DNA from: an uncultured bacterium
Lineage (GTDB): Bacteria > Verrucomicrobiota > Lentisphaeria > Oligosphaerales > Oligosphaeraceae
Reading direction: 5' to 3'
NCBI GenBank assembly: GCA_900548225.1
Contig: URJM01000002.1
Span: forward strand, 4,848-68,847
Length of the DNA: 64,000 nucleotides
In this document: one piece after another, positions 1 to 25,213 of the stretch
Layout: each line of letters begins with the position of its first letter
Position numbering within the stretch: the stretch's first letter is position 1
Notes under the pieces: generated by a model
Told to the model about the DNA's origin: nothing
The model's database searches: none
The model's input: the letters and a program-made list of their open reading frames with translations, nothing else
Made by a program: the position numbers and the translations under genes

Positions 1-752
1 AAATAGATTCTGTCGATTACGGGGAAGCCCTTCCTGCATGCCTTCTCGAAGTCCTGGAGCGCGTCCACGTCCGGGGTCTCCGGCAGGAATTTTTCGATGC
101 TCATGAGATTCTTGATGGCTGCGGGGAGATTTCCGCGTGCCATGGACCTGCGCCATGCGAGCGCTCCGCGCAGTGCGTCCGCCAGGGTTTTGCGTTCACT
201 GGCTTCGGCCTCGAGGTCCTTGACATCCAGCCTGATGTCGCCCACGTAGACGGAGTAGTCGGTCTTTGGCGAGGAGCAGAATATGTCGATGTACTCGATG
301 GCGCTCAGGTCGAAGTTGCTCATCTCGCCAATCTCCGCCTTGAGGGTGTGCCTGCCCTTTGACCGGACCGTGTCGAAGAAGTTGAATGTCTTCGGGTCGT
401 TCTTGGTTTTGACGACCAGTCCCACTGGCTCGTCGGTTTCGCAGTAGATGTCAATCAGGAGTGCGTTCACGAGGCGCCAGTCTGTGAGTGCGTCCGGCAC
501 CTTGTCGAGGTAGAGTTTTCCCGACGGCCACCACTCCTCGCCCGTCCGTGCATTTCCCTTGTATGTGAACTTGACCGTGAGTCCGGATTCGCCAGTTGGC
601 CATGGGCGCTGTTCCATCGTCAGGAATTCGTCGCCGTTTGTCCTCCAGGCATTTTCGGGCGGGTTGGCTGCGGAGTTGACATAGAGGTCGACCTCCTTTG
701 CAAGAAGCGACAGCGACAGCAGGATTCCGGCTAGCAGAAGAAATCTTTTCAT
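1..752 (-). CDS. hypothetical secreted protein (partial, C-terminus beyond window start)
   Basis: Minus-strand ORF starts at ATG (revcomp of cat at about 750-752) and stays open to position 1, at least 250 codons. N-terminus MKRFLLLAGILLSLSLLA looks like a signal peptide. Not in the ORF track because no stop lies inside the window. No recognisable domain. Confidence 0.5.
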   Translation of the reverse strand, partial: MKRFLLLAGILLSLSLLAKEVDLYVNSAANPPENAWRTNGDEFLTMEQRPWPTGESGLTVKFTYKGNARTGEEWWPSGKLYLDKVPDALTDWRLVNALLIDIYCETDEPVGLVVKTKNDPKTFNFFDTVRSKGRHTLKAEIGEMSNFDLSAIEYIDIFCSSPKTDYSVYVGDIRLDVKDLEAEASERKTLADALRGALAWRRSMARGNLPAAIKNLMSIEKFLPETPDVDALQDFEKACRKGFPVIDRIY

Positions 753-873: not shown

Positions 874-2133
874 CTATTCCCCCGCCAGGCAGTCGATGCG
901 TTTTTTTAGGGATTTGAGGGTCTTGTCGATTGTCGGGTAGTCTCTGTAGAGGAATCCCGCCTCCTGGAATGCGGGGGAGTTTTCGACGGCCGTTTCGATT
1001 TCCGCCCGTTTGAGGAGCGCGCGGTCGATTCCGACAACGAGTGGCGCGGCGGGGTGTGCGTCAAGCCAGGCGAGTCGTTCGGCAAGATCCCTCGAATGCC
1101 ATCTGTGGAAGAGCTCCAGGTGGATGATTCTACGGGAACCCTTCCTCCGGAAGGAGTAGTCCGGGAAGATCATCTCGCCTCCGCGCCCCTTGAGAAACGG
1201 AGCCTCCTCTACGATGCGCCATTCGGAGTCCGTTGCGAGAAAGTGGTTTCTGAAGAGGGCCACCTCCTCGGGAAGCACAGCGGAGAATTGGTGATATGGG
1301 CATTTGAGACGGGAATCCTGGTCGAGTTCCAGCTGGAAGAGCCGTCCCTTCCAGAGAATCTGCGCTTCCAGTCTCCACCATGGCATTGTGCAGACAGCGG
1401 GGAAGAACGTAGCCAGCGCGAGGCCGTAGCGCCGTCCCGTGTCCAGCACTGCGGCCGGTCCGTCGACCGTCATCTCCAGCCAGCGGAGCGCGCCGTCGCC
1501 GTCCTGGCCAGATTCCTCCGGGGAGTCCTTGATTTCCGCGAGGAGCTGGAAGAATCTGAGATATTGGCAGAGGCGTCGCAGCTGCGCCGCATCCCTTGCG
1601 CCGACCTTGACCTTCATCTCCCTGGCGGTGAGAAGCAGCGCCTGGACCTGCGCGAGGTTGTAGCGTTCCAGGAGCCCCCGCGCGTCAATGTCGTCGAATT
1701 TCAGCAGCCGGTCGTTTTCCGGCAGGTCGCCGTAGAGATTTCCAACAAGCGGGTTTTCGGGCAGCATTTCCCTGATGCGTTCTTCCCAGTGGCCGAATTG
1801 CGGCAGCGTGTCGTTGCCCCGCAGCAGCTGCGCGGATGCATCGAGAATCTCCTTCCGCAGGGTCTGGAAATCGAGCTGTGAACTTGAGGAGAAGTCAGTG
1901 CGGTCTTCGAGGAGCTTCACGATTCCGAGGCCAAGGCTCCTGCGCGTGGTCTCCGCCAGGACTGCCTTGACGTTTTCATCGAGCTGCCCGCGGCTTTCAC
2001 GCCGGTCCAGTGCGTTGTGGAAGAGTCCGATGAGCTGTTCGCAAAGCAGGAGGTTTTCCTGTGTGAATCCCACGAACCTCGGGAGGATGGAGTCCCTGCG
2101 GCAATATGGATGGACAAGTGCCTGGGTCAGCAT
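874..2133 (-). CDS. Bax1-like nuclease (DUF790-type partner of XPB helicase), 419 aa
   Basis: ATG at 2133 overlaps the stop of the upstream helicase gene by 7 nt, which suggests translational coupling. Size and position match archaeal/bacterial Bax1 (binds archaeal XPB). The family call rests mainly on context; no motif confirmation is possible by eye. Confidence 0.55.
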   Translation of the reverse strand: MLTQALVHPYCRRDSILPRFVGFTQENLLLCEQLIGLFHNALDRRESRGQLDENVKAVLAETTRRSLGLGIVKLLEDRTDFSSSSQLDFQTLRKEILDASAQLLRGNDTLPQFGHWEERIREMLPENPLVGNLYGDLPENDRLLKFDDIDARGLLERYNLAQVQALLLTAREMKVKVGARDAAQLRRLCQYLRFFQLLAEIKDSPEESGQDGDGALRWLEMTVDGPAAVLDTGRRYGLALATFFPAVCTMPWWRLEAQILWKGRLFQLELDQDSRLKCPYHQFSAVLPEEVALFRNHFLATDSEWRIVEEAPFLKGRGGEMIFPDYSFRRKGSRRIIHLELFHRWHSRDLAERLAWLDAHPAAPLVVGIDRALLKRAEIETAVENSPAFQEAGFLYRDYPTIDKTLKSLKKRIDCLAGE

Positions 2134-3536
2134 TCCTCGTGTGTCTCCATTGGGTTGCCGTATGCCGGGTGCATCCTGCGTCTTTCGGAGGTATATGTCT
2201 CACTTGTGCCGTCGCTGACGAGTTCGTAGAGCAGGGCGGTCTTGCCTGGCGAGGGTCGGAGAATCCTGCCCAGGCGCTGGACGTGCTCCCTGACGGAGCC
2301 GGAGCCCGACACGATGATGCCGATGTTCGCGGCGGGCACGTCAACCCCTTCGTTCAGCACCTTGCTGGTGACCAGGGCTGGATATGTGCCGTTGCGGAAG
2401 GCCTCCAGGAATGCTACGCGCTCGGCGGACTTCGTGTGGTGTGTAATCACCGGCAGCGCAAAGGCGTTGCCGAGGCGGTATGCCGCTGCGTTGTCCGCCG
2501 TGAATATGATGGTGCGGTCGTGGCGGTGCGCCTCCAGCAGTTCGGCCACGGTGCGGAACTTTGCGGTCGAGAATCGCGCGATGCGGCGTTGGTCCAGGTA
2601 GGCTTGCATTGCCTGGTGCCCCTCCGTGGTGCGGCTTGCCGCCCTCAGGAAGTTGCCCCAGCCCTGGGGCGTGCCAAGGCGGATGTTGTTCTTGCGCAGA
2701 AAGTCCACGTAGATTCCGTGGGCGCGGGAGTATTCCGCAACCTCGCCTTCGTCAAGGCTCGTGTAGATTGGCACGGTCTCGTATGGCGCCAGGACAGTCT
2801 CCCTGGACAGTTCGCCTATCTCCCTGCGGTAGCAGATACGCCCCACTAGCCTTTCGTATTCCCTGTCGAGTCCGTCGTCCCGTTCGGGTGTTGCGGTCAA
2901 TCCCAGTCGGAATGGCGCGATTGATCCGATGGCGATTTGCGAGTAGGACGGGCCGGGCAGATGGTGGCACTCGTCCACGACCAGCAGTCCGAAGCGGTTG
3001 CCGATGCGGTCGATTGTCAGCAGTGCCGAATCGTATGTCGAGACGGTGACATCCTGGATGTCCTGGGTGCCGCCGCCAAGTATTCCGATGGGTCGCCGGA
3101 AGGCGTTCCTGAGTTGCAGGACCCACTGGGCAAGCAAGTCCAGGGTCGGGACAATAACGAGGGTTGAGCGGTTCGTGCGTGCAATCGCCATCTGCGCCAG
3201 AAAGGACTTGCCTGTGCCAGTTGGAAGGACGACGATGCCGCGCCTGGCGGACTCCTCCCATCGGGCGATGGCCTCCGCCTGGTAGTCCCTTGGCGGGTGG
3301 CTGGAGAAGAGTTCCAGTCCCGGGGAGGTGTAGGCCCTTGCCTGGTCGTCGTAGGGGAAGTGCCCCCTGTGCAACGCCGCGATGATGGCGGAGTACGCGC
3401 TGGCCGCCGCCCGGAAGCACTGCACGCGCCTGTCATATCGGCAGAACTCCCCGATGCCGCAGGGCAGTTCTCCGGGAGTTCTGGCCTCGCCGTCGCCCAC
3501 GAGCAGCGTTCCTGACTGAAAGCGTATTGGAAGCAC
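2127..3536 (-). CDS. xpb: XPB/Ssl2-like superfamily-2 DNA helicase (DEAH-type)
   Basis: Motif I PTGTGKS, motif II DECHH, motif III LTATPERDD (resembles the XPB RED motif), motif VI QRLGRILR. An N-terminal extension of about 70 aa sits where XPB has its damage-recognition domain. GTG start at 3536, 28 nt after the kinase gene stop. Confidence 0.8.
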   Translation of the reverse strand: MLPIRFQSGTLLVGDGEARTPGELPCGIGEFCRYDRRVQCFRAAASAYSAIIAALHRGHFPYDDQARAYTSPGLELFSSHPPRDYQAEAIARWEESARRGIVVLPTGTGKSFLAQMAIARTNRSTLVIVPTLDLLAQWVLQLRNAFRRPIGILGGGTQDIQDVTVSTYDSALLTIDRIGNRFGLLVVDECHHLPGPSYSQIAIGSIAPFRLGLTATPERDDGLDREYERLVGRICYRREIGELSRETVLAPYETVPIYTSLDEGEVAEYSRAHGIYVDFLRKNNIRLGTPQGWGNFLRAASRTTEGHQAMQAYLDQRRIARFSTAKFRTVAELLEAHRHDRTIIFTADNAAAYRLGNAFALPVITHHTKSAERVAFLEAFRNGTYPALVTSKVLNEGVDVPAANIGIIVSGSGSVREHVQRLGRILRPSPGKTALLYELVSDGTSETYTSERRRMHPAYGNPMETHEEC

Positions 3537-3564
3537 GTGCGTGTGAAGTAGGGATTCGCGTCTG

Positions 3565-5808
3565 TCAGGCGACCGTCACATCGCTTTCAAGCAGCTTGAA
3601 TATTCTGGTGAGGGACTGGATGAATCCCAGGATCATCGTCTGCCCCTCCTCGCGCCTGCCTTCCCTGAAGGCCTCCATTATCGTGACGGTCTTTTCGGAG
3701 TGGTCCAGGAGTCCGATTGCGGCGAGCTGTCCCTTGAGGCGATGCAGCAGTGCGAGAGTCTCCTGTTCGTTGCCCTGCTGTGCATAGCTTCCCAGGTTGT
3801 CCAGGAGCGGCCTCCAGTCCGCAAGCGTCTGTGCCAGCAGCATTTTGATTTCGCCCAGGGAGAGCTGGTATTGTTCGCGCATGAAGTCGTGCATTCTCCT
3901 GACAGTCGCGACCTCGGGGGATTCAGCGAGTTCCCTGTCGGCGGCCCGCAGTTCGCGTTCTGGCGTGATGCCAAGCGCCTCCGCAATGCAGAGCAGAAGC
4001 TGGTCCCTTTCGAAGGGCTTCGGGATGAATCCCGTGGAGCCCGCACCGAGTGCCTTTTCGACATCCTCCTGGTATGCGGACGCTGTGAGCGCGATGATGG
4101 TGGTGGTGGCCGCGTCAGGCAGCTTGCGGATTTCCCTGATGGCCGTATAGCCGTCCATGATTGGCATCTGTATGTCCATGAATATCAGGTCGAAGTGCTG
4201 CTGCCGGCATAGGTCCAGCGCCTCCCGTCCGTTTTCGGCCGTGCGGTAGGGCAGTCCCACGGACTGGCAAATCGTCTCCAGCAGGAAGAGATTTGTCAGG
4301 GTGTCGTCCACCAGCAGCGCCCAGTGTTTTTTAAGTTCCGTGCGTGGGAGTTTGACATGGTAGAGGTCCGAGAGATGGACCTGTTCCTCAGGTTTTGAGG
4401 CGGCGCACTGCAGTGTGAAGTAGAAGCAGCTTCCTTCTCCGGGACTGCTCTTCACCTGGAGCCGTCCGCCCAGGAGTTCGACCAGTGAGTGGGAGATGGT
4501 GAGCCCCAGCCCCGTGCCGCCATATCGCCTGGCAATCGAGATGTCTGCCTGTTCGTATGGTTTGAAGAGGTGGTCCTGTTCGCTTTGGGTCATTCCGATT
4601 CCGGAGTCCCTGACTGCGAAGTCGATGGAGAGGCGTCCTCCATCCATGGGCGTGACCTGGATTTCCAGGGCGACCTCGCCGCGTTCGGTGAACTTGACGC
4701 CGTTGCCCAGGAGGTTGTCGAGAATTTGCCTCAGCAGCGACGGGTCGGTTCTCATGAGGACGGGCTCCTCCGTGCCGTGGAAGAGCAGATTCACCTTGAG
4801 GGGCTTGCCGCGTGCGGACTGGCGTGCCAGGGCGACGCGTTCCTCCGCAAAGGAGCGCAGGTCGAATGTCACCTCGGATGCGGTCAGCTTGCCGGCGCGG
4901 AGCTTTGTGAAGTCGAGGATTTCGTTGATGACATGCACAAGACCCTTTGCGCTGGAGTCGATGATCTTGAGATACTGGCGCTGCTGGTCGCTGAGCTGGG
5001 TCTCCTTCAGGCTTGAAAGGAAGCCAAGCAGGCCGTTCATGGGAGTCCGGATTTCGTGGGACATGGTCGCGATGAACTTTTCGCGGGACTGGGACTCCTT
5101 GCGTATGCGGCGCAGCAATTCGTCCATCCCCTCGGCAAAGGTCGGGTCTTCCGTTGCCGAGGGGTCGCGCCTGGCGTGCCGCGCCGGCTCCTCCAGGAGC
5201 TGTCCTACGGGCACGGAGAGATAGTTCCTGAGTGTCTGGAGCTGGCATTTCCGGCGTCTTGACAGGATGAAGAGCCAGTATCCCAGCAGTCCGAGCAATG
5301 GAAGCGGCCATATCCAGCAGAAGATGGCATACGCCATGATTCTCCGGCCTATGGCGTCGTTGGTCTTGCGGATGATATCGTCCGCCTCGCCAATGCACCG
5401 GGAGAGTTCCTCCAGGGGGCGTGAGATGTCCCTGCTTTCCGCAATCGCCTTCAGCTGGCCGCCGACCATGCCGTGGATGTCGTAGAGTCGAAGGATGTCG
5501 GCGCGGTCGGAGGCGTCCGGCATCATCATCAGCATCCTGAGGCGTGTGTCCTGCCTCTCCTGCTCCGCATGCAGCGCCCTCTGGGCATGGTCGCGCTTCT
5601 CCGCCCGCCCGGCCCGCTGGGCCTCGAATATGCTCTGCGAAAGAATGAGTTCCTGATGCCAGGAGCCCCCGACCTCGCTCAATATCGATGAAATCCTCCC
5701 TGAAGCGGAAAGACGGCTGCGCAGGAGGATGCCAATGACGACCGACAGCAGCACGTACGCCGCGACCCCCAGCAGGATGGAGAGTTGTCTTCGTGTGAGG
5801 TTGGGCAT
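3565..5808 (-). CDS. tripartite hybrid sensor histidine kinase (HisKA-HATPase-REC-Hpt), two TM segments
   Basis: H-box MSHEIRTPMNG. HATPase G-boxes DSGIGM and GGTGLGL. Receiver DLIFMDIQMPIMDG with conserved D and K. C-terminal Hpt motif HRLKGQ. Two N-terminal hydrophobic segments flank a periplasmic region of about 130 aa. Confidence 0.9.
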   Translation of the reverse strand: MPNLTRRQLSILLGVAAYVLLSVVIGILLRSRLSASGRISSILSEVGGSWHQELILSQSIFEAQRAGRAEKRDHAQRALHAEQERQDTRLRMLMMMPDASDRADILRLYDIHGMVGGQLKAIAESRDISRPLEELSRCIGEADDIIRKTNDAIGRRIMAYAIFCWIWPLPLLGLLGYWLFILSRRRKCQLQTLRNYLSVPVGQLLEEPARHARRDPSATEDPTFAEGMDELLRRIRKESQSREKFIATMSHEIRTPMNGLLGFLSSLKETQLSDQQRQYLKIIDSSAKGLVHVINEILDFTKLRAGKLTASEVTFDLRSFAEERVALARQSARGKPLKVNLLFHGTEEPVLMRTDPSLLRQILDNLLGNGVKFTERGEVALEIQVTPMDGGRLSIDFAVRDSGIGMTQSEQDHLFKPYEQADISIARRYGGTGLGLTISHSLVELLGGRLQVKSSPGEGSCFYFTLQCAASKPEEQVHLSDLYHVKLPRTELKKHWALLVDDTLTNLFLLETICQSVGLPYRTAENGREALDLCRQQHFDLIFMDIQMPIMDGYTAIREIRKLPDAATTTIIALTASAYQEDVEKALGAGSTGFIPKPFERDQLLLCIAEALGITPERELRAADRELAESPEVATVRRMHDFMREQYQLSLGEIKMLLAQTLADWRPLLDNLGSYAQQGNEQETLALLHRLKGQLAAIGLLDHSEKTVTIMEAFREGRREEGQTMILGFIQSLTRIFKLLESDVTVA

Positions 5809-5847
5809 CTGGAGTGGGGCGTCTGCCTGGAGAAATGGTTGCGCGTG

Positions 5848-7641
5848 TCAGGAGTTGTGGACGGACTCCATGAAGTCGTCGAGGATGCGTTGCGCCTGTT
5901 CGGCCGTGTCCACGTCGCAGACCTGCTGGTACAGGTCGCGGCAGTCTTCGAGGCGCACTCTCCTGGCAAGTTCCCTGATGTGGGGCACAGCGGCAGGGTT
6001 CATTGAAAATTTGCGCAGGCCGGCGCCTATCAACACCGGCAACGCCGACATGTTGCCACCCATCTCGCCGCAAATCTCCAGCTCCTTGTCGGGATACTTG
6101 GACATGATGCGGCAGACGTCGCCAATGAGCCTGATGACAACCGGATGGCACTGCTGGTACCACTGCTTGACACGGGCGTTGCCACGGTCTACGGCGAAGA
6201 GGTACTGCACAAGGTCGTTGGTGCCGATGCTGACAAAGTCCACCTCCGGGAGGAGGCGCTCCAGGGTCAACGCGGCACTGGGCACCTCGAGCATCATCCC
6301 GATGGGGGGATTCCCGTATTCAATTCCATCCTTCCTCAGGGACTCCTGTGCGTCCCTGACCATCGCCTTGATGCGTATGATGTCGCTCATGTCGGAAATC
6401 ATCGGGAAGAGAAGTCGGACATTCCTGGCGACGCACACCCTCAGGATTGCACGGAGGTGCGTCCTGGCAAAGTCTGGGTTGGTGAGGAGGAAACGGAGAC
6501 CGCGCCATCCAAGTGAGGGGTTCAGTTCGTCGTCCCACTGGATGTAGGGCAGGGGCTTGTCGCCTCCGATGTCCAGGGCGCGGATTACGACGGGGGCTCC
6601 TTCCGCGCCGCCTACAAGTCGTTGGAGGACACGGTGTTGTGTCTCTTCATCAGGCATATTGTTCCGTATCAGGAACATGAATTCGGTGCGGTAGAGCCCG
6701 ATTTCGCGTATGCCTGCGCTGTGCAGCGCCGGGATTTCGCTGAAGAGGGTGATGTTTCCGCAGAGGCTGATCGTGGTGCCGTCGAGGGTCTTCGGCGAGT
6801 CGTCCACGGGCGCGTCCTGGGACTGTCCGCCCGTCGCCTGGCGGCTCCTTCTGCTGATGTTCAGGGCGAGCTGGTACTGCTTCAGCACCCCTGCGTTGGG
6901 ATTGATGTAGCAAATGCCGGCGCGGCAGTCGACGAGCAGCTTGTCCTGGACTGTCACCTGCTCCTGTATCTCCGAGACGCCAATCATCATCGGAATCCTC
7001 AGGGCGCGGGCAATGATGGCGACATGGCTCGTCGCACCCCCCGTGTCACACACAATGCCGCAGACACGCTTCAGCGGAGCAGCCAGGAACTGTGACGGGA
7101 AGAGCTCGCGGGCAACCAATATTATCGGGGTGCAGGAGTCCGGCGAGTCGACTGTCGGAACGCCCGTCGAGTCGGTGTTCCGTATTTCGTCCATGATTCT
7201 CATCAGGACATCCTGCACATCCAGAAGCCTTTCGCGCAGGTATCTGTCATTGATGTGGAGGAATTCGTCCTGGAATGACCTGGAGGCCAGTACCAGGGCG
7301 GATGGGAGCGTCAGGTGGTCGTCGAGGTATTTGACGATTCTTTCCTGGAGGGTCGGGTCGTCCAGGAGGCTCTCATACATTTGGAAGAGCCCTTCGTCCG
7401 CCTCGGAAAGTAAATCCTTGACTTGCCGGGAAGCCGCTTCGATTGAGGCGCGGGCGCTTTCGATGGCTGCCTTGAGGAGTCGCTTCTCCCCCTCGACGTC
7501 CTCGGTCCTGACAAGCTTCACGTCCTTCAGCGCGTCATCGCTGGAAAGAACCAGGCATCTGCCATAGCAGACGCCTGGGACAATCGGCGTGCCTGTCTTG
7601 AAGAGCACGTCCTTCCTGGCATCGGGTCTAGTCTTGGTCAT
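5848..7641 (-). CDS. ptsI: phosphoenolpyruvate-protein phosphotransferase (PTS enzyme I)
   Basis: PEP-utilising mobile domain GGATSHVAIIARAL and a TIM-barrel PEP-binding domain. Start moved to the internal ATG (MTKTRPD...) at 7641, because the track start at 7779 runs into rnpB. No N-terminal GAF domain. Confidence 0.9.
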   Translation of the reverse strand: MTKTRPDARKDVLFKTGTPIVPGVCYGRCLVLSSDDALKDVKLVRTEDVEGEKRLLKAAIESARASIEAASRQVKDLLSEADEGLFQMYESLLDDPTLQERIVKYLDDHLTLPSALVLASRSFQDEFLHINDRYLRERLLDVQDVLMRIMDEIRNTDSTGVPTVDSPDSCTPIILVARELFPSQFLAAPLKRVCGIVCDTGGATSHVAIIARALRIPMMIGVSEIQEQVTVQDKLLVDCRAGICYINPNAGVLKQYQLALNISRRSRQATGGQSQDAPVDDSPKTLDGTTISLCGNITLFSEIPALHSAGIREIGLYRTEFMFLIRNNMPDEETQHRVLQRLVGGAEGAPVVIRALDIGGDKPLPYIQWDDELNPSLGWRGLRFLLTNPDFARTHLRAILRVCVARNVRLLFPMISDMSDIIRIKAMVRDAQESLRKDGIEYGNPPIGMMLEVPSAALTLERLLPEVDFVSIGTNDLVQYLFAVDRGNARVKQWYQQCHPVVIRLIGDVCRIMSKYPDKELEICGEMGGNMSALPVLIGAGLRKFSMNPAAVPHIRELARRVRLEDCRDLYQQVCDVDTAEQAQRILDDFMESVHNS

Positions 7642-7704: not shown

Positions 7705-8090
7705 GAAAGATGTGTGTGGACAGATGACTGTAAGCCAGATTCTGTGCACCGCCCCTAGAGGCGGCCGGCGACCATTCATCTAACGCGACCGATACCCGAA
7801 ACTGTGCTTGCGCATGGCGCGGGCCGCGCCTCGTTTCCTATTTGGTCTTGCACCAGAAGGGGCTTGCCGAGCCGACAGCCCTTGCGAGCTGCCGCGGTGG
7901 GCTCTTACCCCGCCTTTTTCACCCTTGCCGACACAAAATGGCCGGCGGTCTCTTCTCTGTTGCGCTATCCTGACCGCGGGTTCACCCCGCGATACCCGAT
8001 CTTTCAACCGGGCTTCCTGCCCTGTGGTGTCTGGACTTTCCTCCCCGAAATAATCGGAGCGGCCGCCCGTCTCCGTCCACACTCGGTTAA
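7705..8090 (-). ncRNA. rnpB: RNase P RNA, bacterial type A
   Basis: Minus strand carries the P4 hallmarks GGAGGAAAGUCCAGAC...ACAGGGCAGG (5' side) and ACAGAAUCUGGCUUACAG (3' side), plus internal GCAACAGAGAAG and GGUAAGAGCCCACCG blocks that match the E. coli M1 RNA layout. The ends (P1) are estimated to within about 15 nt. Confidence 0.85.
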
Positions 8091-8158
8091 TATAACCTGA
8101 CAGCGAAGAGGCGAAGCCCCCCTCCGGTAGCGAAGAAAGACCCCGACGCCAGAGCTCT

Positions 8159-8510
8159 GAACCACGAATGGAACCACGAAATACAGGAGTGGAACCACGA
8201 AAAACACGAAAGGCACGAAAAAAGAAAGCAGGGGGGAGAGTATGAACCACGAATGGACACGAATGGACACGAATGGACACGAATGGAACCACGAAATACA
8301 GGAGTGGAACCACGAAAAACACGAAAGGCGCGAAAAAAGAAGGGAGGGGGGAGAGTATGAACCACGAATGGACACGAATGGAACCACGAAATACAGGAGC
8401 GGAACCACGAAAAACACGAAATACACGAAAAAAGAAAGAAACCCGTAGTCGGGGCGGTATATGAACCACGGATGCACACGAATAATCGTAGTCGGGGCAA
8501 ATTCCCAATA
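8159..8510. repeat. tandem repeat array: about 3.5 units of 85-114 bp, each beginning gaaccacgaatgg and containing a variable-copy 10-bp microsatellite acacgaatgg (1, 4 and 2 copies)
   Basis: Read directly from the sequence. Units end in a purine-rich run (gggggagagtat). The same family recurs at 35030-35295. Confidence 0.85.
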
Positions 8511-8599: not shown

Positions 8600-8676
8600 T
8601 GGTGTGCGATGCAGGACTCGGACCAGCGACCTCTACCGTGTCAGGGTAGCGCTCTAACCAACTGAGCTAATCGCAC
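8600..8676 (-). tRNA. tRNA-Val (anticodon GAC)
   Basis: Minus-strand cloverleaf: GTGCGAT acceptor, TAGCTCAGTTGGTTAGAGC D-arm, anticodon loop CTGACAC, encoded CCA. The T-arm has one U-U mismatch and an unusual T-loop TCCGAGT (C at position 55). Confidence 0.7.
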
Positions 8677-12755: not shown

Positions 12756-13286
12756 ATGAAACTCTACGACAATATCAATGCCACGGCACTTTCCAACTAT
12801 GGCCTGATCACATCCTCCCAGGCCACGGCACTTGGCGTGCGCCTCAAGGACCTGCTTGAATGGGTGAAAATCGGTCGTCTGGAGAAATGCTGGCGTGGAG
12901 TTTACCGCCTTGTGCATTATCTGCCGACGGAGTACGACCGCTATGCAGAGGCCTTGGCGACAGTTGGAGAAGATTCGATGATATGGGGGGAAAGCGTTCT
13001 CGCCATGCACAATCTTGCCATGGTGAATCCCGACAAAATTGAAGTCGCCACGACACGCCGTGTGCGCAGGGAACTGCCCACTTGGATAGGTCTTGTAAGG
13101 CTTCGAGAAGAACCTCTGCATGATGCCTTCAACGGCATCCGCTGCCAGCCTCTGGCGGAATCCTTCAGGCATTGCAAGGGAAAGGTCATGAACCAACGCC
13201 TCGCGGAGGCAGTTGTCGAAGCGGAACAAAGAGGTCTTCTCGGCATCACCGAGGCCTGTGCATTGAAAAAAGAGTTTCCATTATGA
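12756..13286 (+). CDS. AbiEi-family antitoxin/transcriptional regulator-like protein (AbiEi_4 N-terminal domain)
   Basis: N-terminal pattern ...GLITSSQATALGVRLKDLLEWVKIGRLEKCWRGVYRL matches the AbiEi wHTH consensus (...G.IT..QA..LG.....L..LV..G.L.....GVY.L). Confidence 0.6.
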   Translation: MKLYDNINATALSNYGLITSSQATALGVRLKDLLEWVKIGRLEKCWRGVYRLVHYLPTEYDRYAEALATVGEDSMIWGESVLAMHNLAMVNPDKIEVATTRRVRRELPTWIGLVRLREEPLHDAFNGIRCQPLAESFRHCKGKVMNQRLAEAVVEAEQRGLLGITEACALKKEFPL

Positions 13287-14044: not shown

Positions 14045-16147
14045 ATGGAACAGAGCATCACGGAACAGCTTGCGTTGCTGGCCCTTCAGTTGGGTGTGAT
14101 TATCTTCGCCTCTAACATTGTGGGGCGTCTTGCCCAGAAGATTAACATTCCGTCGGTGCTAGGCGAACTTGCCACGGGCGTCATCCTCGGACCCTATCTT
14201 CTTGGGTCGATCGCGCTGCCCTTCTTCCCCAACGGATTCTTCCCGCTGCCGGCGGCGAACGCCGGCATCCCAGTGTCAGACACCCTCTATGCGCTGGCGA
14301 CAATAGGCTCGGTAGTCCTTCTCTTCGAATCTGGGCTCGAGACAGACTTCCGCACATTCTTCCGCTACTCCTTTGCGGGGACGATTGTCGGACTGGGGGG
14401 CGTCGTCTTCTCATTCGTATTCGGAGACCTCCTGGCGGTTTTCATCTACAAGTGCGGTTGGCTTGACCCCCGTGCCCTCTTCCTGGGAATCCTCTCGACT
14501 GCGACCAGTGTCGGCATTTCGGCCAGAATCCTTTCCGAGAGAAAGGCGATTGACTCCCCCGAGGGCACGACCATCATGGCGGCGGCGGTCATCGACGACG
14601 TCCTCGGCATCATCTGCCTTGCGATTGTGATGGGCATTGTCGGCAGCGGGGACGCGTCCCACGTCTCCTGGGGCAAGATCGGCCTTGTTGCCATCAAGTC
14701 GATAGGCATCTGGGTGTTTTTCACTGCCCTGGGGCTTGCGGGCGCCCACTTCTTCGCCCGTGTCCTCAAGCGTTTCCACTCCAGCACCTCGTACGCGGTC
14801 CTGGCGCTTGGCGCGGCGCTGCTTCTTGCCGGAATCATGGAGCGTTGCGGGCTTGCGATGATCATTGGCGCATACACGGCGGGTCTCTCGCTCTCCCGCT
14901 CCGACCTCTCCTTTGCAATACAGCTCCGACTCCACGGCATCTACGGATTCCTGGTGCCGGTCTTCTTCGTCGTCATGGGCATGATGGTTGACGTCAAGGT
15001 CCTCGCCGACTGGCAGACCCTCAAGCTCGGACTCATCTTCACGGTCCTTGCAATCCTGGGGAAAATCATCGGCTGCATGCTGCCGGCCCTCGCCGTCAAC
15101 TTCAATCCAAAGGGGGCGCTCCGCATCGGGTGCGGAATGATTCCGCGTGGCGAGGTCGCACTCATCATCGCGGGAATAGGCGCGACTACGATGATGACAC
15201 TCAATGGACATCAGCAGCCCATCGTTGACTCCACGCTCTTCGGAGTCGCCATCATCATGACCCTGCTGACAACGCTGGTCGCACCAAATCTCCTGATGCT
15301 CAGCCTCAACATCCCGGGACGGGGCGTCCGGAAGGTGAAGCCGGACGCGCTGACAGTCCACCTGGAGTACCCCATGCCCTCCACGGTCGTGGCGGACTTC
15401 CTCGTCCGCCAGCTGATTGTCAACTTCCGCCAGGAGGGATTCAGGCACAGCGACTATTCGCGGGACTACAGCGTCGTCAACTTCCGCAAGGAGCGTTCCT
15501 CCTTTGTCATGACAGTCTCCGACGGGGTCATCTCCTTCGAGTGCTCCAAGGCGGACGCGCCGACCATCAAGAACATCTACAACGAGACCACCTACGAACT
15601 CTACCAGAACATCGAGGAGCTGCGCAGGCTCTCGCCGTCGATGGCCGTCGCCAAGGACGCCGATGTCTACGACAAGGTGATTCCCTATACGGGGCATGAT
15701 TCCCTCTCCCTGGACAAGATCATTCCCGAGGGCGGCGCCATAGTCGACCTGCAGGCGACCACGTACATGGGCGCCATCGAGGAGATGGTCCGCCACCTCT
15801 ACCGCTGCGGCCATGTCGGCGACTATGCCGCGTGCCTCCAGGACGTGCTTGCCCGCGAGGCCCAGGCCTCCACGGTCATGGACAAGGGGGTTGCAATGCC
15901 CCATGCCAAGTCCTCCACCGTCAGGCAGATGGTCTCCGTCGTGGCAATCTGCCGCCAGGACACCCCCGTCGAGGAGGACGGCAAACCCCTGCGCCTCATC
16001 ATTCTCACTGTTGCGCCCAAGGACCAGGACAGCCCGTACATGCAGTATATTGCGCATCAGGCATCCCGCATCTGCAGCCTTGCCAGCCTTGACGAGGTCT
16101 GCGCAATCAAGGTCCCTTCCGAACTCAGGAGGTTCTTCCTGGACTAG
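14045..16147 (+). CDS. cation:proton antiporter (CPA/Na+-H+ exchanger family) fused to a C-terminal PTS EIIA type-2 (EIIA-Ntr-like) domain
   Basis: About 400 aa of multi-TM hydrophobic core typical of Na+/H+ exchangers, then a C-terminal domain of about 150 aa with the EIIA-2 phosphorylation-site motif GVAMPHAK. Confidence 0.85.
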   Translation: MEQSITEQLALLALQLGVIIFASNIVGRLAQKINIPSVLGELATGVILGPYLLGSIALPFFPNGFFPLPAANAGIPVSDTLYALATIGSVVLLFESGLETDFRTFFRYSFAGTIVGLGGVVFSFVFGDLLAVFIYKCGWLDPRALFLGILSTATSVGISARILSERKAIDSPEGTTIMAAAVIDDVLGIICLAIVMGIVGSGDASHVSWGKIGLVAIKSIGIWVFFTALGLAGAHFFARVLKRFHSSTSYAVLALGAALLLAGIMERCGLAMIIGAYTAGLSLSRSDLSFAIQLRLHGIYGFLVPVFFVVMGMMVDVKVLADWQTLKLGLIFTVLAILGKIIGCMLPALAVNFNPKGALRIGCGMIPRGEVALIIAGIGATTMMTLNGHQQPIVDSTLFGVAIIMTLLTTLVAPNLLMLSLNIPGRGVRKVKPDALTVHLEYPMPSTVVADFLVRQLIVNFRQEGFRHSDYSRDYSVVNFRKERSSFVMTVSDGVISFECSKADAPTIKNIYNETTYELYQNIEELRRLSPSMAVAKDADVYDKVIPYTGHDSLSLDKIIPEGGAIVDLQATTYMGAIEEMVRHLYRCGHVGDYAACLQDVLAREAQASTVMDKGVAMPHAKSSTVRQMVSVVAICRQDTPVEEDGKPLRLIILTVAPKDQDSPYMQYIAHQASRICSLASLDEVCAIKVPSELRRFFLD

Positions 16148-22372: not shown

Positions 22373-25213
22373 TTATTGGGATAGTGAGGCAGCCAGGAAC
22401 TGCCCCGTGTAGGATTTCTTGCACTTGGCGACCTGCTCGGGGGTGCCCTCCGCGACAAGGGTGCCGCCCTGGTCGCCACCCTCGGGCCCCAGGTCGATTA
22501 TCCAGTCGGCGGTCTTGATTACGTCGAGGTTGTGCTCGATGACAATGATCGAGTTGCCCTGGTCGCGGAGTGATTCGAGGACTTTCAGGAGCTGTGCGAT
22601 GTCGGAGACATGGAGCCCCGTGGTGGGTTCGTCAAGCAGGTAGAGAGTGTGCCCCTGCGCCCTGCGGGAAAGCTCTGTCGCCAGCTTGACCCTCTGGGCT
22701 TCGCCGCCGGAAAGGGTGGTCGCCGGCTGCCCAAGATGGATGTAGCCCAAACCAACGTCCCGCAAGGTCTCAAGCTTGCGCATGATCCTGGGCATGGATG
22801 CGAAGAACTCGCACGCCTCGTTCACGGACATGGCGAGGACGTCAGCTATGGAACGCCCCTTGAAACGGACGTTCAGGGTCTCGGTGTTGTAGCGGAGCCC
22901 ATGGCACTGCTCGCAGGGGACGTAGACGTCCGGCAGGAACTGCATCTCAATCTTCTTGATGCCGTCCCCCTTGCACTCCTCGCAGCGCCCGCCCTTGATG
23001 TTGAAGGAGAAACGCCCCGGCGTATAGCCGCGAAGCTTGGCGTCGTTGGTCATGGCGAAGACCTCGCGGATGAGGTCGAAGAGCCCGGTGTAGGTGGCTG
23101 GGTTGGACCTGGGGGTCTTGCCGATGGGACCCTGGTCGATGACTATCATCTTGTCAATCTTGTCAATGCCCTCGATCTTCCTGCAGGCCCCGGGTACGTC
23201 GTCCTTTATCCCGAAGTGCTTGTTCAGGGCAGGGCGTATGATGTGGTTGACAAGGGTGGACTTGCCAGATCCGGAGACGCCTGTCACGCAGCAGAGCAGG
23301 CCCAGCGGAATCTTGACGTTCAGGTTCTTGAGATTGTGTTCGGTGGCGCCCTTGACGGTCAGGAAGCCGCCGCTGCCGCGGTTGCGCCTCTTCGGGACGG
23401 GAATCGAGCGGCGCCCGGCCAGGTAGTCCCCCGTGACGCTGCCGGGGGTGGCGGCCACTTCGTCCGGCGTCCCCTGTGCGACGAGGTATCCTCCGTTGCG
23501 TCCTGCGCCGGGCCCCAGGTCGATGAGGTGGTCTGCGGCGCGCATGGTGTCCAGGTCGTGTTCCACGACAATCACGGTGTTTCCGAGGTCCCGCAGGCTC
23601 TTCATCGAGGCGAGGAGCCTGTCGTTGTCCCTCTGGTGGAGTCCGATGGAGGGTTCGTCAAGGATATAGAGGACTCCCACGAGTCCCGAGCCGATTTGGC
23701 TTGCGAGCCGTATGCGTTGCGATTCTCCTCCGGAGAGTGTTCCGCTTTCCCGGTTGAGCGTGAGGTAGTTGAGTCCGACTGTCCTGAGGAAGCCGAGCCT
23801 GTTTCTGATTTCCTTGAGGAGTTCGGCGCCGATCTTCTGCTGGTGGTCTGTGAGCTTCAGGTTGTCCAGGAACTCCAGCGCGCCGTCAATCGAGAGTGCG
23901 CAGAACTGGCTGATGTTGAGGCCGCCCAGGGTCACGGCCAGATATTCGGGCTTGAGGCGCTCGCCATGGCACAGGCTGCACTCCTCGTAAACCGAGACCG
24001 CCTCCAGGCGGGCGCGCAACTCCTCGTTGTCGGTCTCGCGGAGACGCCTCTCCAGGTTCGGGATGATTCCCTCGAAGGGTTTGCGCCACTCGTGGATCTT
24101 CCCCTTCTGCCAGTAGTCGAAGGTGACAACACGGTCGCCAGAACCATAAAGCAGCATCTTGCGGATCTCCGCCGGAAGCTTCTGCCAGGCAGTCGTCAGG
24201 GAGAAGCCGAATTGCTCCGAAAGACACCGCAGGTAGTGGTTGTAGAGGAGGACGACAAAGCGGGGGCCCCGGCGCCACAGGGGAATCGCACCCCTGCGTA
24301 TGGAAAGGGTCGGGTCGGGAATGACCCCCTCCTCGGTGAAGGTGAGGTGCTTGCCAAGCCCGTCGCATCCAGGACACGCGCCAAAGGGGGAGTTGAAGGA
24401 GAAGTTCCTGGGTGCCAGCTCGCCAAAGGAGACTCCGCAGTCAACGCAGGCAAGGCTCTCGCTCATGCGCTCCTCGTGCCAGCCGCCAGCCTCCTCGGGG
24501 GACTCCAGCAGGACCACCAGGACACCATTGCCGCGCTTCAGGGCAAGCTCCACGGAGTCGTTGAGACGGCCAGGCTCCAAGGACCCCGTCACAAGACGGT
24601 CCACCACGGCTTCGATGGAGTGGCGCAGGGTCTTCCCCAGCGAAATCTTGTCGTCAAGGGAGACAAGCGCCCCGTCAATCCTCGCACGGACAAATCCGTC
24701 GCGCCGCATCTGGTCAAGCACTTCCACGTGCTCGCCCTTCTTGCCGTGGACGTATGGCGCGAGGATCATCATCTTCCTGCCACCGGGATACTTCATGATT
24801 TGCCGGCAGATGCTCTCCGCATTCTGGGATGAGATCTCCTTTCCGCACTTCGGGCAGTGGGGCACCCCGAGGTGGGTGTATAGCAGGCGAAGGTAGTCGT
24901 AGATTTCGGTGGTGGTCGCCACAATCGACCTGGGCGAGGAACCCGCCACGCGCTGCTCGATGGCAATCGCCGGCGAAAGCCCGCTTATGTGTTCGACCTG
25001 GGGCTTTGCCAATCTGTCAAGGAATTGCCGTGCATACGCGGAAAGGCTCTCCACATAGCGGCGCTGCCCCTCGGCATACAGGGTGTCAAAGGCCAACGAA
25101 GATTTGCCACTGCCGCTGGGACCCGTGATGACCACGAGCTTGTTGCGCGGAATCGACAGTGTCAGATTCTTCAGGTTGTGCTGGCTGGCGCCCTGGATGA
25201 CTATGGAGTCCAT
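22373..25213 (-). CDS. uvrA: excinuclease ABC subunit A
   Basis: Two ABC ATPase modules (GPSGSGKSSLAF and GVSGSGKSTLV), zinc-finger Cys pairs, 946 aa. Confidence 0.95.
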   Translation of the reverse strand: MDSIVIQGASQHNLKNLTLSIPRNKLVVITGPSGSGKSSLAFDTLYAEGQRRYVESLSAYARQFLDRLAKPQVEHISGLSPAIAIEQRVAGSSPRSIVATTTEIYDYLRLLYTHLGVPHCPKCGKEISSQNAESICRQIMKYPGGRKMMILAPYVHGKKGEHVEVLDQMRRDGFVRARIDGALVSLDDKISLGKTLRHSIEAVVDRLVTGSLEPGRLNDSVELALKRGNGVLVVLLESPEEAGGWHEERMSESLACVDCGVSFGELAPRNFSFNSPFGACPGCDGLGKHLTFTEEGVIPDPTLSIRRGAIPLWRRGPRFVVLLYNHYLRCLSEQFGFSLTTAWQKLPAEIRKMLLYGSGDRVVTFDYWQKGKIHEWRKPFEGIIPNLERRLRETDNEELRARLEAVSVYEECSLCHGERLKPEYLAVTLGGLNISQFCALSIDGALEFLDNLKLTDHQQKIGAELLKEIRNRLGFLRTVGLNYLTLNRESGTLSGGESQRIRLASQIGSGLVGVLYILDEPSIGLHQRDNDRLLASMKSLRDLGNTVIVVEHDLDTMRAADHLIDLGPGAGRNGGYLVAQGTPDEVAATPGSVTGDYLAGRRSIPVPKRRNRGSGGFLTVKGATEHNLKNLNVKIPLGLLCCVTGVSGSGKSTLVNHIIRPALNKHFGIKDDVPGACRKIEGIDKIDKMIVIDQGPIGKTPRSNPATYTGLFDLIREVFAMTNDAKLRGYTPGRFSFNIKGGRCEECKGDGIKKIEMQFLPDVYVPCEQCHGLRYNTETLNVRFKGRSIADVLAMSVNEACEFFASMPRIMRKLETLRDVGLGYIHLGQPATTLSGGEAQRVKLATELSRRAQGHTLYLLDEPTTGLHVSDIAQLLKVLESLRDQGNSIIVIEHNLDVIKTADWIIDLGPEGGDQGGTLVAEGTPEQVAKCKKSYTGQFLAASLSQ

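Follow-up and report, generated by a model that had tools for sequence, protein, structure and literature searches.

The closest described counterpart of the helicase and nuclease genes analysed here is archaeal XPB-Bax1. In A. fulgidus and S. tokodaii (PDB 6P4F, 6P4O, 6P66; PMC7293015, PMC7672443), the two proteins are encoded by adjacent, overlapping genes, the helicase combining a damage-recognition domain (DRD) with two RecA-like domains and the nuclease carrying the acidic residues of DUF790; D305 and E318 are catalytic in the A. fulgidus protein, AfBax1 (PMC7293015). As of 2012, no XPB-Bax1 complex had been identified in bacteria (PMC3353954), and our literature search found no biochemical study of a bacterial one. 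M. tuberculosis, from a different phylum, possesses a bacterial XPB-family SF2 helicase alongside UvrABC (PMC3353954) that is similar by description. For the neighbouring genes, the nearest known systems are the hybrid kinases BarA, TorS and ArcB—HisKA-HATPase-REC-Hpt proteins with three phosphorylatable residues and two transmembrane (TM) segments around a periplasmic loop—and PtsP (EI-Ntr), an enzyme I with a GAF sensor.

Within the window, i.e. the whole 64-kb stretch of DNA analysed, the genes are read on the minus strand in the order ptsI, hybrid kinase, XPB and Bax1 (Table 1). Matches in Pfam and NCBIfam, together with motif inspection, confirmed the identities and catalytic residues of all four, bearing out the gene calls and the co-directional string of a first-pass annotation. 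The spacings that it had listed were likewise recovered from the sequence: 39 nt between ptsI and the kinase, 28 nt between the kinase and XPB, and a 7-nt overlap (ATGCTGA) of the XPB stop with the Bax1 start. The second value assumes a GTG start at position 3536, as public gene calls give a 457-aa XPB and a 64-nt gap; since orthologues keep the N-terminus (M-L-x-L-R-F-Q-S-G-T-L-L) from residue 1, the GTG start is correct.

Table 1. Features of the kinase-XPB-Bax1 locus and its surroundings (window coordinates)
Feature	Position	Strand	Support
GH123 glycoside hydrolase, 5′ part, cut by window end	3..752	-	ATG at 752, signal-peptide-like N-terminus
Bax1 (DUF790) nuclease, 419 aa	874..2133	-	Pfam DUF790 E = 1.1e-56, 192.7 bits (cutoff 28.8)
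XPB-type SF2 helicase, 469 aa, GTG start	2127..3536	-	XPB_DRD, ResIII, Helicase_C, ERCC3_RAD25_C
Tripartite hybrid sensor histidine kinase, 747 aa	3565..5808	-	Pfam HisKA, HATPase, REC, Hpt
ptsI, PTS enzyme I, 597 aa	5848..7641	-	TIGR01417, 425 bits (cutoff 341.7)
rnpB, RNase P RNA	7714..8078	-	Rfam RF00010, 192.8 bits
Na+/H+ exchanger with C-terminal PTS EIIA-2 (EIIA-Ntr type)	14045..16147	+	Na_H_Exchanger E = 9.1e-57, PTS_EIIA_2 E = 8.5e-18

A scan for terminator-like sites returned none between the four genes, folding of both intergenic gaps was at the level of shuffled sequence (z = −0.02 and 0.12), and the gene order was identical among strains of the window species. The co-transcription proposed in the first-pass annotation keeps its likelihood: the four genes are probably co-transcribed, and the kinase likely shares a transcript with XPB-Bax1. 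Four co-directional genes packed this tightly are commonplace in bacteria and, per se, no statistical anomaly.

The helicase-nuclease pair follows the archaeal blueprint in domain architecture, and its sequence similarity to the archaeal proteins is strong for XPB and clear for Bax1. XPB aligned over residues 32–456 with the solved archaeal chains 6p66_A and 2fwr_A (phmmer, E = 3.5e-99), carries the DRD at residues 4–66 (Pfam, E = 1.2e-10) and retains SF2 motifs I, II and VI (GTGKS, DECHH and QRLGRILR). Bax1 matched the solved Bax1 chains 6p4f, 6p4o and 6p66 at E ~1e-9 to 1e-12, and its residues E290, D325 and E340 were invariant in 23 homologues. Two of these, D325 and E340, coincide in the alignment with AfBax1's PDF and VEI motifs, where its catalytic D305 and E318 are located; by reading of the alignment, E290 would, less certainly, correspond to AfBax1 E275. 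Unlike its archaeal counterparts, the pair resides in a bacterial host (Lentisphaerota) that also encodes UvrA (22373–25213 of the window), the RED motif of XPB is a conservatively changed RDD, and in the clade concerned a hybrid kinase gene precedes XPB. Bit scores also stay well below the NCBIfam equivalog cutoff for XPB (181.8 vs. 610 for NF045503) and below those of the archaeal equivalogs for Bax1 (64–71 vs. 500).

DUF790-XPB loci numbered 340 in GTDB, 80 of which we examined. XPB lies directly upstream of Bax1 in most related loci, and in one of them (L010) the two are fused in frame. Judged by sequence, XPB-Bax1 is an intact, translationally coupled pair that is widespread and syntenic in Lentisphaerota. 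Both proteins have identical lengths and domains with or without an adjacent kinase, and neither contains a REC, PRD, EIIA or EIIB domain detectable with Pfam.

The kinase shares the BarA/TorS/ArcB architecture, with hydrophobic TM segments at residues ~9–31 and 157–182 bracketing a loop of ~125 aa, and with H251, D545 and H689 as phosphorylatable residues. Its Hpt domain scored below the Pfam cutoff (20.4 vs. 24.6 bits), with the HRLKG motif present. BarA, TorS and ArcB-like NCBIfam models all matched below their cutoffs (e.g. 351 vs. 890 bits for BarA). In further contrast to those kinases, the sensor region (residues 1–245) matched no Pfam family at E ≤ 1, HAMP and PAS domains are absent, as is any DNA-binding output domain, and no cognate response regulator is encoded nearby: neither the window nor the flanks of the clade loci (up to 10 kb per side) hold another REC-domain gene. 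Aligned upstream regions of the kinase revealed a hairpin and a T-run only, and no common operator-like motif. A protein search with the kinase gave at least 120 matches, those listed all being 99–100% identical variants from the same species, which is very common in public assemblies. The matches listed from a metagenome scan comprised generic kinases at 33–42% identity, aligned through common histidine kinase motifs, and one true orthologue, truncated by the end of its contig (L089).

Comparison with related genomes gave different pictures for the two halves of the string. The order kinase, XPB, Bax1 recurs in 11 other species-level Lentisphaeria lineages among the GTDB species representatives, with kinase/XPB gaps of 3–62 nt over the 12 lineages including the window. 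The linkage noted in the first-pass annotation is thus kept in related genomes, yet in one clade only: in a neighbour-joining tree of XPB plus Bax1, all kinase-bearing loci formed a single clade. Within it, the kinase-less locus L022 pairs with the kinase-bearing L017 (bootstrap 87%; root-spanning clades being unreliable owing to a rooting mismatch, only the 87% and 100% bipartitions were used), so that the kinase must have been gained once and lost at least once. The kinase is also missing from L062; both L022 and L062 retain XPB-Bax1, with the gene of a 179-aa secreted repeat protein directly abutting XPB. In relatives that have the kinase, this gene and a hairpin after it form the usual upstream neighbour of the kinase, whereas no homologue of the 179-aa protein was detected anywhere in the window. 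Remoter Lentisphaerota possess XPB-Bax1 without the kinase, the pair being preceded, where examined, by an 86–91-aa TM protein.

None of this extends to ptsI. Its product consists of the three enzyme I domains with the catalytic motifs GGATSH (TSH), GTNDL and CGEMGG, and lacks a GAF domain. A longer, 643-aa reading frame (to 7779) was rejected, as it overruns the RNase P RNA gene; public collections moreover contain a protein identical to the shorter product. The closest homologues (64–69% identity) are 596–609 aa in length and likewise without GAF, while homologues with identities of up to 58% mostly measure 762–796 aa and nearly all contain GAF domains. The nearest homologues beyond the clade are GAF-containing Lentisphaerota PtsP proteins, and ptsI is a GAF-less derivative of this PtsP (EI-Ntr) lineage, which is common in the phylum.

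rnpB shares the strand of ptsI, 72 nt upstream of it, and directly precedes GAF-less ptsI in three relatives as well (L173, L174 and L175); in L177, it precedes a GAF-containing ptsP. The gene 3′ of ptsI changes with each genome, being Dus, a DEAD helicase, PPDK or, in the window, the kinase. Around Bax1, the examined flanks of 14 clade loci contained no rnpB, and none of 88 related loci encoded PtsI at 10 kb or less from Bax1. GCA_002315885.1 and GCA_051884615.1 carry ptsI and kinase-XPB-Bax1 on separate contigs. Going by gene order, the conserved companion of ptsI is rnpB and not the kinase. The first-pass annotation had itself held that absence of the linkage from relatives would speak for fortuitous adjacency; for ptsI, such absence is what we found, and the PTS half of its reading consequently fails.

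The partners of ptsI may lie elsewhere. A search for HPr or EIIA, which the first-pass annotation had suggested for elsewhere in the genome, succeeded in part within the window. It revealed an EIIA-2 domain at the C-terminus of a Na+/H+ antiporter, also matched by E. coli PtsN in tblastn; in the same window, tblastn with HPr of E. coli and B. subtilis, and with Crr, yielded no match for HPr/NPr or Crr. An EIIA-Ntr-type domain fused to a cation/proton antiporter close to ptsI is in line with the PtsP/EI-Ntr systems, from which the present one differs by the missing GAF sensor and by the HPr/NPr not detected in the window. The antiporter-EIIA fusion, located outside the string at a distance of 6.4 kb from ptsI, is a plausible candidate target of the PTS phosphoryl chain.

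Taken together, we consider it quite likely that the string arose in this one species by juxtaposition of two modules that are independent of each other and conserved separately. One, rnpB followed by ptsI, would belong to a regulatory PTS; the other would comprise the kinase, XPB and Bax1, followed by GH123, with XPB-Bax1 as its ancestral part. If the pair works like its archaeal counterpart, XPB may open DNA where a bubble or fork has formed, for Bax1 to nick, suggesting a role in DNA repair. In the ancestor of a clade of gut-associated Lentisphaeria, an orphan hybrid kinase of the BarA/TorS type would have inserted once, directly upstream of XPB; ever since, it would have been carried in the XPB-Bax1 transcription unit. 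A rearrangement in the window species may then have swapped the 179-aa repeat protein and hairpin for rnpB-ptsI. The kinase would signal to a response regulator encoded elsewhere, and we infer that XPB-Bax1 is not a direct target of either the kinase or the PTS, with no functional coupling between them.

Several observations run counter to this juxtaposition of modules. The kinase/XPB junction has stayed within its narrow range in 12 lineages, despite divergence of the kinase sensor domain (down to 32–43% identity across the clade) and of Bax1 (to 46–55%), and conservation of the REC (92–97%) and Hpt (75–90%) domains far exceeds that of the rest of the locus. The same observations, along with the absence of terminators between the genes, favour a different reading, in which kinase, XPB and Bax1 form a functional unit: an envelope or gut signal would be relayed to an unlinked, autoregulating response regulator that sets expression of the pair, with ptsI as a passenger. 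Also in its favour and against the juxtaposition, the kinase/XPB junction outlives the GH123 junction in L017, where no GH123 was found within the 3.4 kb examined downstream, so that selection for co-expression is possible.

We nevertheless regard such a unit as unlikely. The conservation of the block is weak evidence for regulation because it traces back to a single insertion event, with the kinase lost or absent in L022 and L062 and the pair kept; because the GH123 junction is equally conserved; and because XPB and Bax1 lack any phosphoryl-receiving domain and no response regulator is encoded nearby. Moreover, in most Lentisphaerota XPB-Bax1 occurs with no kinase beside it, neither protein has gained a clade-specific extra domain, and our literature search found no paper connecting a hybrid kinase with XPB-Bax1. 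Phosphorelay control of the pair is unproven. The signal-regulated DNA processing put forward in the first-pass annotation thus holds as far as the conserved adjacency of the kinase goes and fails for the PTS linkage, and the case for a DNA enzyme controlled by signalling is thin.

The gene 3′ of Bax1 offers another candidate target for the kinase. The truncated GH123 frame at the window edge, which alone gave no Pfam match, shares 99% identity with the N-terminal part of a 784-aa GH123 protein on contigs of the same species, and one to three GH123 genes come after Bax1 not only in the window but also in 11 of 11 relatives of the main subclade. Hybrid kinases often control glycan use in gut bacteria, and the kinase might thus be a glycan-sensing regulator of GH123, with XPB-Bax1 merely lying between them. 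This seems improbable, as L017 has the kinase without GH123 in the downstream stretch, the kinase lacks a DNA-binding output domain, and the abundance of glycoside hydrolases in these genomes makes adjacency to one of them weak evidence.

That all four genes form one DNA-processing or anti-phage system with a nuclease gated by PTS flux and phosphorelay, the full reading of the first-pass annotation, is hardly credible and largely refuted by comparative genomics: the short gaps, the lack of terminators and the constant order among strains of one species speak for it, but the ptsI linkage is missing in every relative examined and replaced by that to rnpB, XPB and Bax1 lack PRD, EIIA, EIIB and REC domains, and PADLOC matched neither Bax1 nor the kinase nor PtsI, its matches to XPB being confined to generic SF2 helicase cores (e.g. 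PbeA). PTS control of XPB-Bax1 is accordingly very unlikely. A role in anti-phage defence was rejected on the lack of a specific PADLOC match and on the location of the locus, which is constant between strains, syntenic across the clade and outside any variable island; the defence function suggested at first pass is not borne out.

Had the initial reading been true, a DNA helicase-nuclease under PTS and phosphorelay gating would have come to light for the first time. The outcome is an ordinary bacterial XPB-Bax1 pair that is probably co-transcribed with a kinase in one clade and, in a single species, also with ptsI. There is a slim chance that, in this single gut-associated Lentisphaeria clade, the orphan kinase, through its very strongly conserved REC-Hpt relay, governs XPB-Bax1 via an unlinked regulator autoregulating the operon; such autoregulation would place the pair under transcriptional phosphorelay control, and an extracytoplasmic signal would then adjust the capacity of the cell to unwind and incise DNA. 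More generally, the locus illustrates that tight spacing alone can mimic a functional coupling that comparative genomics then dismantles. For Lentisphaerota, its value lies in an XPB-Bax1 pair that is widespread and syntenic in this bacterial phylum and, in the window, encoded alongside UvrA.

The minus strand carries four long open reading frames arranged head to tail, and Pfam and NCBIfam bore out the identities given to all of them in the first-pass annotation, namely the PTS enzyme I gene ptsI, a hybrid histidine kinase, XPB and Bax1. Its observation of a tight co-directional string was correct: the sequence itself shows gaps of 39 and 28 nt and then an overlap of 7 nt (ATGCTGA). These gap lengths follow from start codons placed at 7641 (ATG, ptsI) and 3536 (GTG, XPB). 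A ptsI start at 7779 was rejected, as the longer frame enters the RNase P RNA gene (rnpB); the 597-aa PtsI product has an exact match in public data. Public gene calls for XPB begin 12 codons further downstream, but the N-terminus is kept across orthologues from residue 1, favoring the GTG start. Neither intergenic gap folded better than shuffled sequence, and a scan found terminator-like sites in neither.

Positions of the features discussed, in the window and in related loci
Feature	Source	Position	Strand	Remark
Bax1	window	874–2133	−	Pfam DUF790
XPB	window	2127–3536	−	Pfam XPB_DRD, ResIII, Helicase_C, ERCC3_RAD25_C
Hybrid kinase	window	3565–5808	−	Pfam HisKA, HATPase_c, Response_reg, Hpt
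ptsI	window	5848–7641 (long ORF to 7779)	−	PEP-utilising domains; PTS enzyme I model
rnpB	window	7714–8078	−	immediately upstream of ptsI
TTCGTG array	window	8163–8432 (about 8150–8500)		between tRNA and rnpB
tRNA	window	8603–8676
AbiEi-like antitoxin	window	12756–13286	+	strain-variable spot
Na+/H+ exchanger–EIIA-2	window	14045–16147	+	6.4 kb away
UvrA	window	22373–25213	−	19 kb from XPB–Bax1
rnpB	L173; L174; L175	7609–7972; 7526–7911; 7489–7875		upstream of ptsI
rnpB	L177	3434–3824		~176 nt upstream of GAF-containing ptsP; distant Lentisphaerota genome
179-aa secreted protein	L001 and orthologues; L022	3340–3879; 7433–7969		precedes kinase, or XPB when kinase missing
86–91-aa membrane protein	L006; L007; L008 and similar	6299–6574; 6301–6561; 6341–6610		upstream of XPB–Bax1
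XPB–Bax1 single ORF	L010	3404–6055		horse-faeces MAG
FHA-REC protein	L057	7229–8491	−	divergent, just upstream of XPB–Bax1
Bax1 without XPB	L077, L080, L086	10001–11240		no XPB match within 10 kb

Residues 32–456 of XPB align to a crystallised archaeal XPB (E = 3.5e-99), with the helicase motifs GTGKS, DECHH and QRLGRILR intact. Bax1 (DUF790, E = 1.1e-56) matches solved Bax1 chains, and alignment of 23 homologues revealed E290, D325 and E340 to be invariant; the last two align with the Archaeoglobus fulgidus Bax1 motifs that contain the catalytic residues D305 and E318 (PMC7293015). Bax1 homologues assign the window to Lentisphaerota, the closest outside the window species being 55% identical. 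In one related locus (L010), XPB and Bax1 form a single continuous in-frame ORF, which reflects either misassembly or a natural fusion; a real fusion would support a physical XPB–Bax1 complex in bacteria, which, as of PMC3353954, had not yet been described. In three Lentisphaerota loci Bax1 has no XPB nearby, and the ORF upstream of it in one of these (L077) is unrelated to XPB and sulfatase-like in appearance. The window also encodes a canonical UvrA, so bacterial nucleotide excision repair appears to exist here too.

Scanning one genome per GTDB species yielded 340 relatives, and the best 80 of the 340 loci were retained with at most 10 kb of sequence on either side; together with eight from neighbourhood look-ups, these 88 loci were compared with the window proteins by tblastn. 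The linkage expected in related genomes held for the kinase but not for ptsI, which was found around Bax1 in none of the 88 loci. In 11 species representatives (L009–L015, L017, L019–L021), the kinase lies directly upstream of XPB (gaps of 3–62 nt), with XPB and Bax1 joined by a 7-nt overlap or a short gap; the remaining loci have no kinase with XPB–Bax1. All kinase-bearing loci form one clade in a neighbor-joining tree of concatenated XPB and Bax1, and the kinase-less L022 groups with the kinase-bearing L017 and with L018 (87% bootstrap), for which one gain and one loss of the kinase is the most parsimonious history. Outside this clade, many Lentisphaerota encode a membrane protein without Pfam match directly upstream of XPB–Bax1, which could be a third component. 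A further locus, L057, carries an FHA-REC gene next to XPB–Bax1, and L048, L054 and L064 have weak REC-like matches at the equivalent position; such a REC neighbor would constitute a second, independent signaling neighbor of XPB–Bax1, in another clade.

The kinase, whose Hpt match is the weaker of its domains, resembles BarA, TorS and ArcB-like models at scores below the equivalog cutoffs (NCBIfam). It possesses a ~125-residue loop flanked by two hydrophobic segments as well as the phosphorelay residues H251, D545 and H689. Public assemblies contain the window species very often: its kinase is listed in 253 index blocks. Across the clade (orthologues in L009–L021), the receiver (REC) and Hpt domains are 92–97% and 75–90% identical, vs. 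only 32–43% for the sensor, 65–71% for XPB and 46–55% for Bax1. The relay interface is thus conserved to an unusual degree and is under strong constraint from a putative partner. Both this pattern and a kinase–XPB junction that is tight in every lineage, and outlasts the downstream glycoside hydrolase gene GH123 in L017, speak for phosphorelay control of XPB–Bax1; such control, however, would be only indirect, through shared transcription, and we consider it unlikely. XPB and Bax1 possess no receiver, PRD or EII domain (Pfam), their lengths and domains are unchanged in relatives with or without the kinase, and neither the 64-kb window nor the clade loci contain another REC-domain gene. As a control for plain synteny, the downstream neighbor was checked: GH123 follows Bax1 in the window species and 11 of 11 relatives of the main subclade, and an obviously unrelated junction is therefore kept as well as the kinase–XPB junction. 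Our literature search turned up no publication that connects XPB with an operon encoding a histidine kinase.

On the other side of the kinase, its bearers conserve a gene whose secreted product contains GLVN-type repeats and matches no Pfam family; this gene directly adjoins XPB in L022 and L062 and has no homologue in the window. A hairpin and T-run follow this gene 12–60 nt before the kinase start (XPB start in L022), so near the next start that expression of the kinase/XPB block may depend on read-through past the hairpin.

PTS control of XPB–Bax1, also proposed in the first-pass annotation, is effectively refuted by the absence of ptsI from the related loci. PtsI itself has three PEP-utilising domains and the motifs GGATSH, GTNDL and CGEMGG, and its score exceeds the NCBIfam cutoff for PTS enzyme I. 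It was rightly described as lacking a GAF domain, as do its homologues at 64–69% identity (596–609 aa). Those at ≤58% identity are mostly 762–796 aa long, nearly all with an N-terminal GAF domain that identifies them as PtsP/EI-Ntr; the window protein therefore derives from that lineage and lacks its GAF domain. The search for an HPr or EIIA partner, confined to the window, recovered a C-terminal EIIA-2 domain on a Na+/H+ exchanger, likely a candidate regulatory PTS target in this organism, but no HPr. Between this antiporter and a rhamnosidase-like gene, the spot holding the AbiEi-like gene is occupied in the same-species strains L169–L172 (around 1000–3200) by AbiEii, DUF4143 or DUF6088 genes, or by nothing.

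The gene after ptsI differs in three close relatives (Dus, DEAD helicase, PPDK), and in GCA_002315885.1 and GCA_051884615.1 ptsI and kinase–XPB–Bax1 lie on separate contigs. In 3/3 relatives examined, by contrast, the RNase P RNA gene precedes ptsI on the same strand at a distance of 28–125 nt, a range that also covers the clade of the window; it likewise precedes ptsP in L177, unlike in L176. No rnpB was detected in the examined flanks of Bax1 in 14 clade loci. With rnpB–ptsI conserved and the genes after it varied, the window string thus represents rnpB–ptsI joined to kinase–XPB–Bax1–GH123, probably by a species-specific rearrangement; the ptsI–kinase junction is constant in four strains of the species. 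A conserved TATATTA box precedes rnpB, and in the window a GC-rich hairpin without U-tract lies between rnpB and ptsI; transcription reading through from rnpB may account for ptsI expression. The adjacent array consists of dense 9–10-nt TTCGTG-containing units within a 115-nt repeat; TTCGTG occurs 19 times in ~340 nt, whereas the remainder of the 64 kb has only 2 copies on the strand concerned. Copy number ranges from 10 to 25 in L169–L172, and relatives lack the array upstream of rnpB; its appearance suggests a variable-number repeat or a putative binding-site array.

A role in defence found no support in PADLOC, where Bax1, the kinase and PtsI had no match and XPB matched only generic helicase cores. 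The evidence best fits an ordinary bacterial XPB–Bax1 pair of repair type, translationally coupled and coexisting with UvrA. In one clade an orphan hybrid kinase would belong to the same transcription unit, as would ptsI in a single species.
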